Assembly: GCA_020353515.1 (NCBI GenBank)
Contig: CP070695.1
Span: 948,127-1,012,126, forward strand
Source of the DNA: Candidatus Heimdallarchaeota archaeon
GTDB taxonomy: Archaea > Asgardarchaeota > Heimdallarchaeia > Hodarchaeales > Hodarchaeaceae
Direction: 5' to 3'
DNA: 64,000 bases
Below, piece after piece: positions 55,572 to 61,299 of the stretch (position 1 is the stretch's first letter; each line of letters starts with the position of its first letter). A model generated the notes under the pieces. That model was given only the letters and a program-made list of their open reading frames with translations. It ran no database searches and was not told where the DNA came from. Made by a program: the position numbers and the translations under genes.

Positions 55572-56084
55572 ATGATGAACGTATTGGAACTTTTAAAAAC
55601 CCGTAGAAGTATTCGAAAATATAAATCAACGCCAGTTGAACCTGAAAAACTTGATAAATGCCTGGAGGCAGCTCAGTGGGCGCCATCCGCCTCGAATAAG
55701 CAGCCTTGGGAATTTTTGATCGTAACTGATGAAAAAAAGAGGAAAAGATTAGCTGAAATTCATCCTTATGGAAAGTTTGTTGCAGAAAGTCCAGTTGTTT
55801 TTATTCCTCTAACTAATCCCGAAGTTCATCCTAAATATCATCATGCCGATACAGCATTGGCTACATTGCAATTTATGATTGCTGCTCATTCCCTACAACT
55901 AGGTACGTGTTGGGCTGGAGTTATTAATTCAGATATAGAACCTAATATCAAGGATTTGTTAAAAATCCCAAATCATTTAAAGGTTCTCGCTCTCGTGGCT
56001 GTTGGTTATGCTAATGAAACTCGTACTTCCAAGCGAAAACCCCTTGAGAGTCTAGTTCATAAAGAATCGTATGGTTTAAAATGA
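55572..56084 (+). CDS. nitroreductase family protein
   Basis: RRSIRKY, APSASNKQPW, LGTCW, terminal RKP. Confidence 0.92.
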   Translation: MMNVLELLKTRRSIRKYKSTPVEPEKLDKCLEAAQWAPSASNKQPWEFLIVTDEKKRKRLAEIHPYGKFVAESPVVFIPLTNPEVHPKYHHADTALATLQFMIAAHSLQLGTCWAGVINSDIEPNIKDLLKIPNHLKVLALVAVGYANETRTSKRKPLESLVHKESYGLK

Positions 56085-56230: not shown

Positions 56231-58591
56231 CTATCTAAGTGATAGTTGTAATGCTAGATTCTCTTGGGTAAAACGTCCAAATGCAACTAAATCCGCTTGA
56301 CCTTGTTTTATTGCTTGTTCTGCAGAGTCAATATCAAAATCACCACTGCAAACAATCGGGATATGAGGAAGATCATCTTTTACTTTTTGAATAAACCGTT
56401 CTATACCTACTTCCTCATCTTTTACCTCGCTATATAAGTAATCAATGCAGAGTAATTCGATTCCCGCTCTTTCGATGTATTTAACAACTGTGGAAAGCTC
56501 ATCATCAGGTAAACCGCGAAAAGGAGCTGAGATGTAATATGCAAGCATGATTTCTTGTGGAAGAGTAGCACGAATCGCTTTAGCAACCTCTAGAGGGAAT
56601 TGGATTCGATTTATGAATGATCCACCATATTCATCAGTTCGTTTGTTGTATTCTGGTGATATGAATTGACCAAGTAAGTCTGGTTTTTCTTGTATCATAC
56701 TTGAAGATATTTCAACTATATCAAAACCAGCACGAGCAGCACGAATTGCAGCTTCAGCAAACTCATTTCGAATTTGTGAAATCTGTCCCAACGTCAAGGA
56801 ACGAGGTGGATCACGATCAGATATAGGAATTGCAGAAGGCGCAAGTGGCTGCACACCACATATTGCCTTCTTCGTTGCTCCTCCTGCATGAGTTAAACGA
56901 ATTCCGATCAAAGACCCATTTTTATGAACCTGCTCAACAACCTGTGCTAAACGAGATATGACATAATCATCATGAATTCCAATTTGATGAGGATGACTTT
57001 TCCCTTGGAGAGAGATGTAAGCTGGCTCTATATAGACTAATCCAGCACCATCTTGAGCAGCTTTTCTATAGTAAGATATCGCTTCGTAAGAAATCTGCCC
57101 ATTCACAATTTCTCCAGTTTTAATTCCACTAATCGAAGAAGAAGGCATTACTACACGATTACGAGCTTTCAATCTCCCTAACTGATAAGTACGAGTTAAG
57201 ATCGATTCTTTAGGTACACGATTTCTAATAAAAAGTATCAATAAAGTTGCAATGGTATAAAGAGTGGCAGTGAACATAAATACATATAGGAAACCATAAT
57301 TATCTACTATAAAACCCCCTATTGAAGCAGAAACAGACCAAAACATTCCCCAAGCCAAAGTTTCTAGAGAATTCCATTTGGCACGGGAAGCAGAGGGAAC
57401 TATATCCATAACAATCGATCGACTCACAGGCCCAGCTGCATTCATTAATGCATTACGACTAATATAAAAAAATACAAGAAAAAGAACTGATAAGGAATAC
57501 GTTATGGTATGATTCAGGTAAAGTACAAGATTAATCATTAATCCAACCAAGCAGATAATTGCGAGTCCTTGAGTGAAAAACATCGATCCAATACGACCAA
57601 GAATTCGAATCATTCGCTGAGCAAGCAAACCTGCTAAACCTGTAACAATACTTGTAATACACATAATAGTATAAGTAAAAAAAGGGGGTAGACCGTAACC
57701 TATTTCTGAACTCGCAAAGAGAATAGGGAAAAAGGCTACTGTCGCTCCAGCTCCAAAACCAATTATAATTCCACTAATAACGATTACACTAGGGGTAATT
57801 ACCTCATAAAAAAACGGTATTCCAAAGATTGTCACAACAGGAGTCCCCCTTACTACTTCAACTCCTTCTTTTGGGAGGGTGGTTGAAGTGGGGGAATCTT
57901 GAATTCTTGTCACGAGAGCTTTATTGTCAGAAGCAAAAACAATTGCTAAGTATGCAAATAATGAAGTAAAAGCTGCCATAAGGATAAGATTTTGAAGTAA
58001 TTTGAGATCCCAAGTGTCACCAAGAAATAGTGTGGATCCAGCTGCTATAGCAGGACCTATAGCGGATGCGACGAGATTAGCAAAGAACATCTTTGCAAAC
58101 ACTTGACTCCGTCGTCCTGGTTCTATAGAGTCTGCAATTAATGCTTGTCCTGCTGGACCAGATAATCCCCACCCTATTCCTCCAAGTATCTCACTAACAA
58201 TAAGTGCTGTCAGAGCTGTTTGGGGATTCCCTACCAAAGTTGTGGCATAGATAAGTGTCACTTGTGCTAGAACACCAAAAATCACAGAAATTCGTATTAA
58301 AAGATCCCTTCGGTATCTATCTGCGAAAATCCCAGACGGTATAACGAAAATAGTGGAAGCAATTCCTTGTATTGTGAAAAGATTACCGAGAATTATATTA
58401 GTTTGTCCTAATCCATTAGGGGTATTATTTGTAACGAAAATTGAAAATGCTACCTGAATGATACCCATTCCAAGAGCAAAACTTATTGTTTGGATATAAG
58501 CCAGCCTAACATTCCAATTCATTTTTCTTTTCACTTTTTTTTCCGAACATTCAATCATAAGGATAAGTATATTACTTCGATAGATTTTCAT
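56231..58591 (-). CDS. MFS transporter fused to a degenerate NADH:flavin oxidoreductase (OYE) domain
   Basis: MFS motif GIFADRYRRD and about 12 TM to aa ~455; then NRVVMP, HAG, AGFD.VEI, QFISP..NKRTDEYGGS..NR, AFGR; start may be ATG 58522. Confidence 0.88.
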   Translation of the reverse strand: MKIYRSNILILMIECSEKKVKRKMNWNVRLAYIQTISFALGMGIIQVAFSIFVTNNTPNGLGQTNIILGNLFTIQGIASTIFVIPSGIFADRYRRDLLIRISVIFGVLAQVTLIYATTLVGNPQTALTALIVSEILGGIGWGLSGPAGQALIADSIEPGRRSQVFAKMFFANLVASAIGPAIAAGSTLFLGDTWDLKLLQNLILMAAFTSLFAYLAIVFASDNKALVTRIQDSPTSTTLPKEGVEVVRGTPVVTIFGIPFFYEVITPSVIVISGIIIGFGAGATVAFFPILFASSEIGYGLPPFFTYTIMCITSIVTGLAGLLAQRMIRILGRIGSMFFTQGLAIICLVGLMINLVLYLNHTITYSLSVLFLVFFYISRNALMNAAGPVSRSIVMDIVPSASRAKWNSLETLAWGMFWSVSASIGGFIVDNYGFLYVFMFTATLYTIATLLILFIRNRVPKESILTRTYQLGRLKARNRVVMPSSSISGIKTGEIVNGQISYEAISYYRKAAQDGAGLVYIEPAYISLQGKSHPHQIGIHDDYVISRLAQVVEQVHKNGSLIGIRLTHAGGATKKAICGVQPLAPSAIPISDRDPPRSLTLGQISQIRNEFAEAAIRAARAGFDIVEISSSMIQEKPDLLGQFISPEYNKRTDEYGGSFINRIQFPLEVAKAIRATLPQEIMLAYYISAPFRGLPDDELSTVVKYIERAGIELLCIDYLYSEVKDEEVGIERFIQKVKDDLPHIPIVCSGDFDIDSAEQAIKQGQADLVAFGRFTQENLALQLSLR

Positions 58592-58673: not shown

Positions 58674-59162
58674 ATGGAGATATTATTCTTGACTAAGGCA
58701 ACTTTTGAAACTAAATTTGGAAATATTGTAATAGATTTTTTTGATGAGGTGACAAACACCGTTAAAAACTTTGTATCCCTTACTGATTTAGGATTTTATG
58801 ATGGATTGACATTTCATCGTTGCATCCCTGATTTTGTAGTTCAAGGAGGATGCCCTCAAGGGACTGGTACTGGGGGCCCTGGGTATTCTATTCCTTGTGA
58901 AACCGAAAAGAATACCGAAGAAAAGCATAAACATCATCGCGGAGCTCTTTCAATGGCTCATGCTGGCAAAGACACTGGAGGATCCCAATTTTTCTTAGTG
59001 AGAGCCCCTCAACCTCACCTCGACGGAAAACACACAGTATTCGGTAAGATAACAGAAGGATTAGAAATCATTGATAAATTAAGTAACGGAGACAAAATGA
59101 TTCAGGTGAAAATCACCGAAAAAAGCACGCTAATCGAAAATCATAATTTGAGAAAGATTTAG
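58674..59162 (+). CDS. cyclophilin-type peptidyl-prolyl isomerase
   Basis: [44 protein letters not shown]. Confidence 0.95.
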
Positions 59163-59287: not shown

Positions 59288-59920
59288 ATTCCTGTCTGTA
59301 AGAATTGTCTTAATTATGTTATGAATTTAGACGAAGACAACCCCTGTCCTCATTGTGGGAATATAGAAACCCTGACTGATAGGACAGATGATGATTTCAA
59401 ACCAGTCATTCCTGAGGATCTTCAATTTGACTTCAAGAAAGAGGCAGGAGACGAATCAAACATATTTATTGCACCTACTCCACAGGAAATCTATGGGAAC
59501 AATGACACTTCTACAAATGAAAACTTACCTGAACCTCCTCAACCTGTCCAATCCAAAACTCAACCAGAAGACTTACCAGAACCTCCTCAACCTGTTCCAA
59601 CAGATACTCAACCAGAAAGTTCTCCAACCCCAATTTCACAAAATATTCCTTTAGAATCACTTTTCCCTCCCATAGAAGGTGTAACTCTAGATCCAGCATC
59701 CCTTAAGGTATATTTTCAGCTGTCTATTGAATTTCAGATCATTTTGAATAAAGCTACAAATTATCGTCAAGGAGTTTACCGGTGGAACCTTTTATTACCT
59801 GATAGATTGCAAGAATATGGGTTGACAGAAGAAGCATGGCAAAGGATCTCAGCACAGGGAGATGCGGATGAAAAGATTCAAGAACAATTAAGTATAATAC
59901 TTAAATCAATTTTTGGATGA
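59288..59920 (+). CDS. zinc-ribbon protein with Pro-rich repeat; probable ATT start upstream of the listed ATG 59321
   Basis: In-frame upstream PVCKNC completes the ribbon with CPHC; GAGGT 7 nt before ATT. Confidence 0.65.
   Translation: MPVCKNCLNYVMNLDEDNPCPHCGNIETLTDRTDDDFKPVIPEDLQFDFKKEAGDESNIFIAPTPQEIYGNNDTSTNENLPEPPQPVQSKTQPEDLPEPPQPVPTDTQPESSPTPISQNIPLESLFPPIEGVTLDPASLKVYFQLSIEFQIILNKATNYRQGVYRWNLLLPDRLQEYGLTEEAWQRISAQGDADEKIQEQLSIILKSIFG
59523..59618 (+). repeat. 48-bp tandem duplication encoding LPEPPQPVxxxTQPE x2
   Basis: ACTTACC(T/A)GAACCTCCTCAACCTGT at 59523 and 59571. Confidence 0.9.
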
Positions 59921-59958: not shown

Positions 59959-61299
59959 TTATTCTTGGATAGCTGTGATATCTATTCCTTTTGTTTCGGG
60001 GATAAGTCGAGGGACAAACAACATAGCAAGATAAGCAAATGTACAAGCAAGCATTGCAACCGCTAAAGCTTGAGCATGTCCCAATGGATTTTCCAATACC
60101 GACACAGTGGGCTCCAACGTTTCTGCAACTATACCGACAAAAAATGCTCCCCAGGCTAATCCACGTGCTACTGAGAAAATAAGGGAAGTAGCTGTTGCAC
60201 GGATTCTTGTGGGATAGACCTCACTAGACCAAACACCAAATACTCCGTGCATTCCAAATGAAATAGTTAGAACGAGACAGCCTATTACGATTAAAGGAGT
60301 AAAAACCACAATAAAATTGGAAACAAAGAAAATAGAGGCTCCAATGAGCCCAATTATAGAACAACCAATAAATGCATTTCTCCTACCAATTCGATCACTC
60401 AACCATCCAGTAGTAAATAAAGCAAATGCAGCAATAATCATCACACCTAACATGACAACCATTGCCAGTGTGCCTGCAGTGTCAACATCACCACCAGCAT
60501 TTTGCAATTCATAAGTGAATAAATACTCGAAATAGGTAGGTGCCCAGTCAGCGAGCGTATGATAGGCAAATTCCGAAAGCCAGAACAATAATACAAGTAA
60601 AATAGTCAATTTCAACCATTTTCCTTGTAAAATGTCAAAAATCCTTACTTTTTCTGGTTTTACTTCGTCCTCGAGTTGTACTGATTTTTTGTAATCAGTC
60701 CAAACTTGAGATTCATCTAGTGCAAATTCTAAATAAATTAAGAAAGGAATAGGAAAGAGTGCAGAAAGGAAACAGATTCTCCATCCATCTAGAATTAAGG
60801 GGCCCAAAGTAATGGGATCCATATTCCCAAAAATAAGCGTAACTATTACTGCTCCGATATAACCAACAACAAATGTTGCATGAACCAATCCACCAGCAGC
60901 TCCTCGTTTTTCTGAGGAAAATGTCTCTGATAGTAAAGAAAATGAAATACCCCAAGAAACACCAAGCCCAGAGAGTAACCTTAATATAGCAAAAATTTCA
61001 AATGTTGGTGCAATTGCGGATAGTGACGTGAAAATAGAGTCCCAGAGTACAGAGAGTAAAAGGATATTTTTTCTGCCAAATCGATCAGCTAATTCGCCAA
61101 ATAGTGCAGCTCCTGGGACAGTCATGACATATTGCGCAGAGAAAACGAATCCAATCGCTATTTTATCAACACCATAAGCAACACTTATAGTTGTCGCCAG
61201 CAAACTTACTAATACTAACGCAAATCCATCATGGGCCCATCCGATTACTCCTGCAATTAATACAGGAACTTTACTACTGGTATCATTCATTTCTGCCAT
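59959..61299 (-). CDS. MFS transporter (sugar/aromatic acid type)
   Basis: GELADRFGRK, GWLSDRIGRR, SEVYPTRIRAT, PETKG. Confidence 0.93.
   Translation of the reverse strand: MAEMNDTSSKVPVLIAGVIGWAHDGFALVLVSLLATTISVAYGVDKIAIGFVFSAQYVMTVPGAALFGELADRFGRKNILLLSVLWDSIFTSLSAIAPTFEIFAILRLLSGLGVSWGISFSLLSETFSSEKRGAAGGLVHATFVVGYIGAVIVTLIFGNMDPITLGPLILDGWRICFLSALFPIPFLIYLEFALDESQVWTDYKKSVQLEDEVKPEKVRIFDILQGKWLKLTILLVLLFWLSEFAYHTLADWAPTYFEYLFTYELQNAGGDVDTAGTLAMVVMLGVMIIAAFALFTTGWLSDRIGRRNAFIGCSIIGLIGASIFFVSNFIVVFTPLIVIGCLVLTISFGMHGVFGVWSSEVYPTRIRATATSLIFSVARGLAWGAFFVGIVAETLEPTVSVLENPLGHAQALAVAMLACTFAYLAMLFVPRLIPETKGIDITAIQE

Follow-up and report, generated by a model that had tools for sequence, protein, structure and literature searches.

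The window analysed here, a stretch of 64,000 nucleotides on contig CP070695.1 of a Candidatus Heimdallarchaeota archaeon, contains a minus-strand gene that encodes a major facilitator superfamily (MFS) transporter joined in frame to a triosephosphate isomerase (TIM) barrel of the Old Yellow Enzyme (OYE) type. This MFS-OYE fusion is a real, previously undescribed accessory-domain arrangement, limited to one Asgard lineage. The barrel, which is under purifying selection, probably serves the transporter as a non-catalytic accessory module on the cytoplasmic side, most likely in a ligand-binding or regulatory capacity. The gene is composed of the following parts:

56231 to 58522, minus strand: whole gene, 763 codons plus stop, beginning at the homologue-supported ATG (M24 of the earlier open reading frame (ORF) from 58591)
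57227 to 58522, minus strand: MFS transporter half, residues 1-432, with 12 predicted helices and both termini cytoplasmic according to Pfam, the full-length model and the positive-inside count
58304 to 58333, minus strand: MFS motif-A-like cytoplasmic loop between transmembrane helices (TM) 2 and 3, GIFADRYRRD, the core of which is invariant in the fusion family
57188 to 57226, minus strand: linker RNRVPKESILTRT, residues 433-445 (13 residues), leading from TM12 to the N-terminal hairpin of the barrel; P, E and S are invariant
56234 to 57187, minus strand: OYE-type TIM barrel, residues 446-763, assigned by Pfam (Oxidored_FMN), the AlphaFold2 model and Foldseek

In the ORF list and translation of the window, 56231-58591 is a single stop-free minus-strand frame of 786 codons. 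At the DNA composition of the window, the chance of a 328-codon stretch staying open is small (P about 1e-10), and the other two frames across the barrel contain 23 and 30 stops. Both halves are recognised by Pfam: MFS_1 matches within the first ~440 residues (E 1.3e-28, 100.4 bits vs. a cut-off of 33.4), and Oxidored_FMN (PF00724) matches residues 470-774 of the 786-aa ORF (E 1.7e-41, 143.1 bits vs. a cut-off of 27), covering positions 7-324 of the 342 in the profile. The first-pass annotation had described a 12-TM MFS that reads without a stop into a full OYE domain, and the open frame with its two Pfam matches bears this out. The ORF on which that description relied, 56231-58591, is correct in frame but not in its start: the true N-terminus is almost certainly M24 (ATG 58522), because the orthologous genes that were read (7/7) and the database entry all begin with MNWN, giving a protein of 763 aa. 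The 23-residue extension that starts at ATG 58591 (58523-58591, MKIYRSNILIL...) is present in no homologue. Starting at ATG 58522 leaves a divergent, AT-rich (about 28% GC) intergenic region of 151 bp to the neighbouring cyclophilin gene.

A word-indexed search covering 5.8 billion proteins yielded about 37 full-length MFS+OYE clusters (737-780 aa, 50-79% identity). Their source assemblies are without exception Asgard ones, bearing the labels Hodarchaeales, Heimdall or 'Promethearchaeota', and several of the clusters are located on long contigs or closed chromosomes. In total, the fusion is present in at least 35 independent Asgard assemblies, and in each of the six fusion loci that were fetched (L001-L006) the translation runs straight through the junction. 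The recurrence of the same fusion in this many independent assemblies, with long contigs and closed genomes among them, shows that the junction did not arise by misassembly. An inspection of homologues and reads, which had been put forward as a check on the junction, points the same way: a 1571-nt metagenome contig (run X1, which may be the source sample) spans it with zero differences. The independent metagenome runs X2-X4 contributed only short, diverged pieces, none of which spans the junction. When the species-representative genomes of the class were searched, the barrel was found in 14 of the 21 sister species of the window's genus/family group, each match lying within an open frame of 718-804 aa, and in none of the 61 genomes of other families.

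An exhaustive search with a hidden Markov model, in which a full-length profile was compared with 1.84 billion representatives at 50% identity, revealed no second MFS+OYE family. A single representative spans both halves, and it is a member of the window's family; the other top matches are MFS-only or OYE-only, among them P0149 and P0286, which are ordinary OYEs. P0148 (245 aa) combines an unrelated N-terminus of 60 residues with the C-terminal half of the family barrel and is probably a chimeric contig or a miscalled fragment. P0163 (816 aa), an MFS protein related more remotely (E 1e-52 with the family profile), ends in a CRAL/TRIO lipid-binding domain and is a further case of a cytosolic ligand-binding domain appended to a related MFS. 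The literature on OYE pseudoenzymes, Asgard/Hodarchaeales MFS proteins and domain fusions yielded no description of an MFS-OYE fusion; public records name the protein either 'MFS transporter' or 'OYE-family reductase'. The earlier statement that no such fusion had been described is thus in accord with the literature and with both protein collections, in which no other MFS+OYE architecture was encountered.

The AlphaFold2 model of the barrel (60-row alignment) has a predicted local distance difference test score (pLDDT) of 88.6 and a predicted TM-score (pTM) of 0.90, with eight beta-alpha units following the OYE hairpin. In Foldseek, the model matches XenA, TsER, PETN reductase, NemA and GkOYE with E about 1e-25, query TM-scores (TMq) of 0.84-0.86 and 26-28% sequence identity. 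The nearest sequences are the OYE domains of FadH/BaiCD-like multi-domain reductases (30-35% identity); the three free-standing OYEs of the organism's own genome are only 23-25% identical to the fusion barrel. Sequence and predicted structure together mark the barrel as homologous to the OYEs by descent and fold: it has the same N-terminal hairpin, NxRxDxYGG and GFDxxE as YqjM, TsOYE (TsER), GkOYE, XenA and the OYE domain of FadH/BaiCD. In contrast to all of these, its loops after beta-6 and beta-7 are shortened and it has no C-terminal extension, neither an Arg finger nor Fe-S/FAD domains; in contrast to known OYEs, it is joined to the C-terminus of a membrane transporter. The free-standing OYEs of the same genome (L009:1420-2517, L010:1426-2451 and L012:1333-2532) keep the canonical HxxHGY and the Gln; all three end in Cys-x-S-C-N-x-C, like the start of the FadH-type Fe-S linker, without FAD/NAD domains.

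Selection on the two halves was compared by Nei-Gojobori estimates of dN/dS (omega) on seven genes. Over all pairs, omega is 0.08-0.17 for the MFS half and 0.10-0.32 for the barrel, many of the pairwise dS values being saturated; for the window and L001, the pair with the least saturation (dS about 1.1), it is 0.099 for the barrel and 0.118 for the MFS half. The barrel is maintained by purifying selection, and the dN/dS check that had been suggested for the OYE part finds it not to be neutral. Hence the notion that the barrel is the decaying relic of a once-active fused enzyme, or the product of an assembly or gene-calling error, is largely refuted and scarcely credible. In distant pairs, the barrel does evolve at a slightly higher rate than the MFS half (mean pairwise identity 52% vs. 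66%; the linker, at 76%, is the most conserved segment of the protein), and it has been lost in some lineages. However, not a single stop has arisen in at least 35 lineages despite saturated synonymous divergence, the fold is predicted with confidence, and independent assemblies and closed genomes have the same junction.

The flavin site and the catalytic residues of the barrel were compared with those of TsOYE (3hf3/5nux), the numbering of which is exact since the mutant names C25D, I67T and A102H fit the letters; the roles of the residues are those in the list of 17 contacts of flavin mononucleotide (FMN) in YqjM (PMC4002455). For the family as a whole, an alignment of 35 fusion members was set against 25 canonical OYE domains. 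The segments concerned are, in order along the barrel:

'PSSSIS', minus strand: S and I in the fusion protein in place of TsOYE C25 and Y27
57017 to 57031, minus strand: IEPAY, end of beta-2; the FMN-contacting Ala (TsOYE A58/YqjM A60) is replaced by P, giving a family-specific invariant Pro-Ala
56879 to 56902, minus strand: IRLTHAGG, beta-3; the FMN-binding Gln (TsOYE Q100/YqjM Q102) is replaced by a near-invariant Arg, and the trailing Arg of HAGR is lost
56675 to 56713, minus strand: EISSSMIQEKPDL, at the place of the catalytic HxxHxY of OYEs; in the fusion a longer loop of variable sequence, without His/His/Tyr
56618 to 56647, minus strand: NKRTDEYGGS, scaffold motif in common with canonical OYEs; N, R, D, Y and G are invariant in both groups
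56528 to 56539, minus strand: YYIS, beta-5; the FMN-binding Arg (YqjM R215/TsOYE R225) is replaced by Tyr, with Y/H/S/C across the family
56273 to 56284, minus strand: AFGR, beta-8; its Arg corresponds to YqjM R308, the Arg of the FMN phosphate, and is present in the window protein but relaxed across the family

The catalytic His/His/Tyr triad occurs in none of the 35 family members; in the window protein, TsOYE H172, H175 and Y177 correspond to S, K and D, with four inserted residues (segment SSSMIQEKPD). The equivalent of Q102 is Arg in 97% of the family, that of R215 is replaced in every member by Y, H, S or C, and that of R308 is Arg in 40% of the family vs. 96% of the canonical OYEs, so that this last position is unconserved. 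Compared with canonical relatives, the beta-7 GG loop lacks one residue, and about 15-25 residues are missing from the loop after beta-6. The motif readings of the first-pass annotation (EIHxAHGYL lost; RLTHAGG, YYIS and NKRTDEYGGS present) are all correct when judged by the TsOYE alignment. Its remark that the phosphate-binding GR remains applies to the window protein (AFGR) but not to the family: the GR is retained only in the window's close subclade, whereas elsewhere GFEK, GLSQ or GFGQ is found. With the catalytic and the key FMN residues gone in every family member, the designation as a pseudo-enzyme was well chosen; as read from its residues, the barrel is not a working ene-reductase and is a pseudo-enzyme in the OYE sense. 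It thereby differs from YqjM, TsOYE, GkOYE and XenA, all of which have the His/His(Asn)/Tyr residues and the Q102, R215 and A60 positions that the fusion barrel has replaced.

The consequences of such changes for flavin binding can be gauged from engineered GkOYE. The single mutants Q102A, R215A and R308A stay yellow, whereas double mutants with any pair of these exchanges are colourless and contain no FMN by liquid chromatography-mass spectrometry (PMC11233575). The apo GkOYE barrel (8X0J) stays folded, with a root-mean-square deviation of 0.24 Å, and in crystals OYE barrels devoid of flavin are dimers and remain stable (PMC11233575). Because every fusion protein replaces at least two of the three residues Q102/R215/R308 and pairwise loss empties GkOYE, the natural barrel very probably carries no FMN. 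The laboratory counterpart is apo-GkOYE.8 (PDB 8X0J; Q102A/Y169F/R215A/R308A), which is mutated at positions that the natural family has altered too and which folds without flavin (TMq 0.85 to the model). In contrast to the fusion barrel, it is a soluble construct that keeps H164/H167; the natural family has changed both and has re-fixed an Arg at the Q102 position.

A flavin-binding redox sensor had been considered among the possible roles of the barrel: FMN would be bound in an altered mode, and its redox state would modulate transport, like Kv-beta with NADPH. In favour of this, the phosphate GR and the NxRxDxYGG scaffold persist in the window's subclade, and flavoprotein genes are near (the nitroreductase in the window, a flavodoxin in L007/L008). 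The flavin site is nevertheless dismantled: two or three of the Q102/R215/R308 positions are replaced family-wide, the equivalents of Q102 and R215 in every member, an invariant Pro stands at the A60 position, neither His of the pair is left, the beta-7 GG loop has one residue fewer, and the phosphate Arg is unconserved across the family. A role of this kind is therefore very improbable.

The full-length model (pLDDT 78, pTM 0.69) shows twelve helices, and the membrane half has the attributes of an MFS protein, namely the profile match, 12 helices and a motif-A-type basic loop between TM2 and TM3. Lys and Arg residues number 17 in the loops on the side of the N-terminus vs. 1 in the opposite loops; because of this charge bias and the motif-A-like loop 2-3, the C-terminus and the barrel are placed in the cytoplasm, as had been supposed. 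The MFS half scores below the cut-offs of both TIGR00900 (DHA3/EntS-like; 33 bits vs. 319.6) and PF05977 (19.7 bits vs. 27), and the family profile matched no solved MFS structure at E<=0.001. Only ~13 residues separate TM12 from the first strand of the hairpin, and these form the best conserved stretch of the protein. Since the connection is both short and this strongly conserved, the barrel would be held in a fixed position relative to the transporter or the membrane. A complex prediction of the MFS half with the barrel half (35-row alignment each), run without controls, gave a score of 0.00, which speaks neither for nor against contact between the two.

Comparison of the columns of the 35 fusion barrels with those of the 25 canonical OYE domains sorts the positions into four classes: (i) 35 columns form the shared scaffold (NR in the hairpin, GFDxxE, NxRxDxYG and others); (ii) 11 columns are lost (the phosphate Arg, the 'L..ADP' motif of beta-8/alpha-8 and the Gly after beta-6); (iii) four columns are re-fixed as another residue, including Gln to Arg107; and (iv) 25 columns are newly invariant. 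The new invariants fall into two groups (domain numbering). The first is made up of linker and N-terminal hairpin positions (V1, P2, E4, S5, Y11, L16), the second of positions at the C-terminal ends and loops of beta-1 to beta-3 (Q41, P65, A66, Q78, G80, H82, Y85), beside R107 and H110. Because the latter group gathers at these strand ends, the pyrimidine side of the old flavin pocket is taken to be remodelled and is constrained, while the substrate loop and the phosphate side are relaxed.

This distribution is the main ground for choosing between the possible functions of the barrel. A ligand-binding or regulatory role is the most likely one and is favoured over a structural role because new invariant residues, peculiar to the family, are found on the beta-2/beta-3 side of the pocket; a structural or partner-docking role comes as a close second. 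In its pure form, the latter would make the barrel a platform for folding, stability, membrane insertion, oligomerisation or partner docking that binds nothing small. The residues in common with canonical OYEs are for the most part scaffold (the 35 shared columns), the old substrate loop and the phosphate site are variable, the strongest new constraint is at the linker and hairpin, i.e. at the junction, and the stability and dimerisation of apo-OYE barrels in crystals (PMC11233575) suit such a platform as well. On the other hand, the family-specific invariant polar residues Q41, Q78, H82, Y85 and R107 lie on the catalytic face and on no obvious interface, and the C-terminal arginine-finger extension of YqjM-type OYE oligomers is absent, the barrel ending right after alpha-8; a purely structural module is thus rather unlikely. 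Improbable to a greater degree is a neo-enzyme that would use the barrel with a flavin-free or differently bound cofactor to modify the transported substrate at the membrane, as LplT-Aas does. An engineered FMN-free GkOYE gains non-redox Morita-Baylis-Hillman activity in its emptied pocket (PMC11233575), and strong purifying selection together with the invariant residues R107, H110, H82, Y85, D166 and E169 would fit an enzyme. However, D166, E169 and H110 are scaffold residues of ordinary OYEs and no new constellation, the substrate-site loop is the least conserved part of the pocket, the activity of the engineered GkOYE relied on H164/H167, which are absent in the fusion barrel, and natural orthologues without a barrel exist in the same gene context.

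These barrel-less relatives, MFS-only proteins of 417-478 aa and about 58% identity, are found in the same lineage. In L007 and L008, the short form occupies the exact syntenic slot of the fusion, with the divergent cyclophilin gene on one side and nitroreductase/PALP/BcrAD on the other, and stops just past a remnant of the linker (RNRAPSE...). A split gene was rejected for these two loci: the following gene of 395-401 aa (L007:6638-7843, L008:6572-7759), on the same strand 3' of the short MFS, encodes a multi-pass membrane protein with a C-terminal zinc ribbon (conserved Cys-x2-C...C-x2-C) and no Pfam match on record, and is not an OYE, although it occupies the position that the barrel would have. 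In L013 (1970-5598), a barrel-less MFS paralogue of 426 aa, ending in ...VPKESIV, lies tail-to-tail with a fusion gene of 764 aa between nitroreductase and cyclophilin, so that both forms occur together in one genome.

The history of gain and loss was approached by a tree of the MFS part, a quick maximum-likelihood tree (IQ-TREE) with SH-aLRT support only, the root of which rests on long-branch outgroups. All but one of the ten short forms group with 11 fusions in a clade that has 96% support, and at least three state changes are needed. Because the barrel-less forms nest within the fusion clade, they would represent secondary losses and not a recent accident of fusion: the tree favours an ancestral fusion followed by two or three losses of the barrel. 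The absence of the barrel in relatives, once named as an outcome that would speak against a functional domain, is thus real in that barrel-less orthologues and paralogues exist, but their nested position points to secondary loss. Of the seven sister genomes without a barrel match, two have a complete short form and one has a match cut at 350 aa. Origin of the fusion from operon partners is unsupported: the nearest outgroup MFS genes, P0141 and P0137, have no OYE neighbour. The barrel is dispensable for the transporter core, and barrel-less orthologues and paralogues keep nearly all MFS-conserved residues. Only nine columns that are fixed in the fusions switch in the barrel-less forms, five of them on the cytoplasmic side (vs. 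76 of 180 conserved columns). This difference lacks significance, a single clade supplies most of the barrel-less rows, and an interface signal in the MFS columns was accordingly rejected.

Three observations weigh against the view of the barrel as a flavin-free, ligand-binding or regulatory domain. First, the changes in the family (Gln to Arg, Arg to Tyr) differ from the alanines of GkOYE, so that some remaining or modified flavin binding is conceivable, above all in the subclade of the window, which keeps its GR. Second, the two or three losses of the barrel, and the failure to find the gene in four of the 21 sister genomes (completeness 71-93%), make the function dispensable. Third, with a variable old substrate loop (beta-4 end) and phosphate side (beta-7/beta-8), at least half of the pocket is relaxed, which fits a structural role equally well.

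The arrangement can be summarised in the following manner: The last helix of a 12-helix MFS secondary transporter is tied, by a short and near-invariant linker, to a cytoplasmic TIM barrel. The latter descends from an OYE of the YqjM/FadH type and has kept the scaffold while losing the flavin pocket and the residues for hydride and proton transfer. It probably acts as a non-catalytic accessory module of the transporter, most likely as a ligand-binding or regulatory domain. More specifically, though only tentatively, nature may have reshaped an OYE without flavin into a cytoplasmic domain that gates the MFS on binding a ligand, or that captures substrate, and thereby controls or feeds the transporter.

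TIM barrels derived from enzymes are associated with membrane transport proteins elsewhere. Kv-beta, a TIM barrel of the aldo-keto-reductase kind that is attached to Kv1 channels at their cytoplasmic face, is regarded as a modulator and not a metabolic enzyme. As in the fusion, an oxidoreductase-derived TIM barrel is placed on the cytoplasmic side of a membrane transport protein; in contrast, Kv-beta is of another barrel family, forms a subunit of its own and still has an NADPH site and some residual catalysis, whereas the fusion barrel is covalently linked and its cofactor site is dismantled, so that it does not share the retained cofactor. In the heavy chains CD98hc and rBAT, a glycosidase-like TIM barrel (inactive in CD98hc) is coupled to a secondary transporter and contributes to stability or trafficking; CD98hc serves LAT transporters. 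Here too a secondary transporter has an enzyme-derived TIM barrel as its permanent accessory, but the barrel of CD98hc/rBAT is extracellular, disulfide-linked, of GH13 ancestry and eukaryotic, with a partner of the APC fold.

Among MFS proteins, additional C-terminal cytosolic domains are found in Escherichia coli YajR and in LplT-Aas fusions (reviewed in PMC8154325). Like P0163, these have a 12-TM MFS core followed by a C-terminal cytoplasmic domain, as does the fusion. The domain of YajR is, however, small (about 65 residues) and unrelated to OYE, Aas is an active enzyme, and none of the three proteins has an OYE barrel.

Regulation or stabilisation of transport by an attached pseudoenzyme domain is an acknowledged principle of which few examples are on record. 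The fusion adds a clean natural case of an OYE barrel that has very probably given up its flavin, yet is kept by selection in covalent attachment to an MFS; orthologues that naturally have no barrel, and the barrel-less paralogue next to a fusion gene, serve as built-in controls. Of the membrane proteins of the Hodarchaeales-type Asgard lineage to which it is restricted, hardly any have been characterised. Discovery of a ligand would at once disclose what class of substrate this orphan transporter moves and show the OYE fold in a new use; the rigid 35-kDa barrel would make the fusion protein a convenient target for cryo-electron microscopy. Were the barrel a ligand gate, it would be the first covalently fused dead-oxidoreductase TIM barrel to serve as a transporter regulator, and a prokaryotic counterpart of the Kv-beta and CD98hc arrangements in the archaeal lineage usually placed closest to the eukaryotes. 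The fusion gene is not universal even within its own lineage, and the finding, though solid, is of moderate weight.

The fusion gene is flanked by two conserved neighbours:

58674 to 59162, plus strand: cyclophilin gene, divergent from the fusion; the most persistent neighbour of the fusion and of the barrel-less orthologues
55572 to 56084, plus strand: nitroreductase-family gene, convergent; the last of a conserved same-strand block of BcrAD_BadFG, PALP and nitroreductase

In most loci, the block that converges on the fusion reads DUF763, a roadblock-like protein of 129 aa, a protein of ~650 aa, BcrAD_BadFG, PALP (threonine-dehydratase-like) and nitroreductase. The nitroreductase also flanks the barrel-less forms in L007, L008 and L013 and is missing beside the fusion genes of L003 and L006. 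Because the same neighbours accompany barrel-less forms and two fusion genes are without them, the gene context is not specific to the barrel and says little about it. The convergent flavoprotein gene that had been noted is present, but its link to the barrel is weak, and the nitroreductase was rejected as specific evidence for a functional partner.

In L006 (1-12256), the fusion gene P0021, which forms the longest fusion branch on the MFS-part tree, has entirely different surroundings and lies among CBS-domain proteins, pyruvate:ferredoxin-oxidoreductase subunits, GcvH and Hdr-like CCG/Fe-S proteins. Two genes past the fusion, a second MFS gene (59959-61299, minus strand, 446 aa, Sugar_tr/aromatic acid:H+ symporter-like) is found, at the same place as in L001, L002 and L004. 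The plus-strand gene at 59321-59920 encodes a protein of 199 aa with a CxxC start and Pro/Gln/Glu-rich repeats (PEPPQPV twice) and has no Pfam match; the slot after cyclophilin is taken in L001, L002, L004 and L005 by genes of 136-237 aa with no Pfam match on record.

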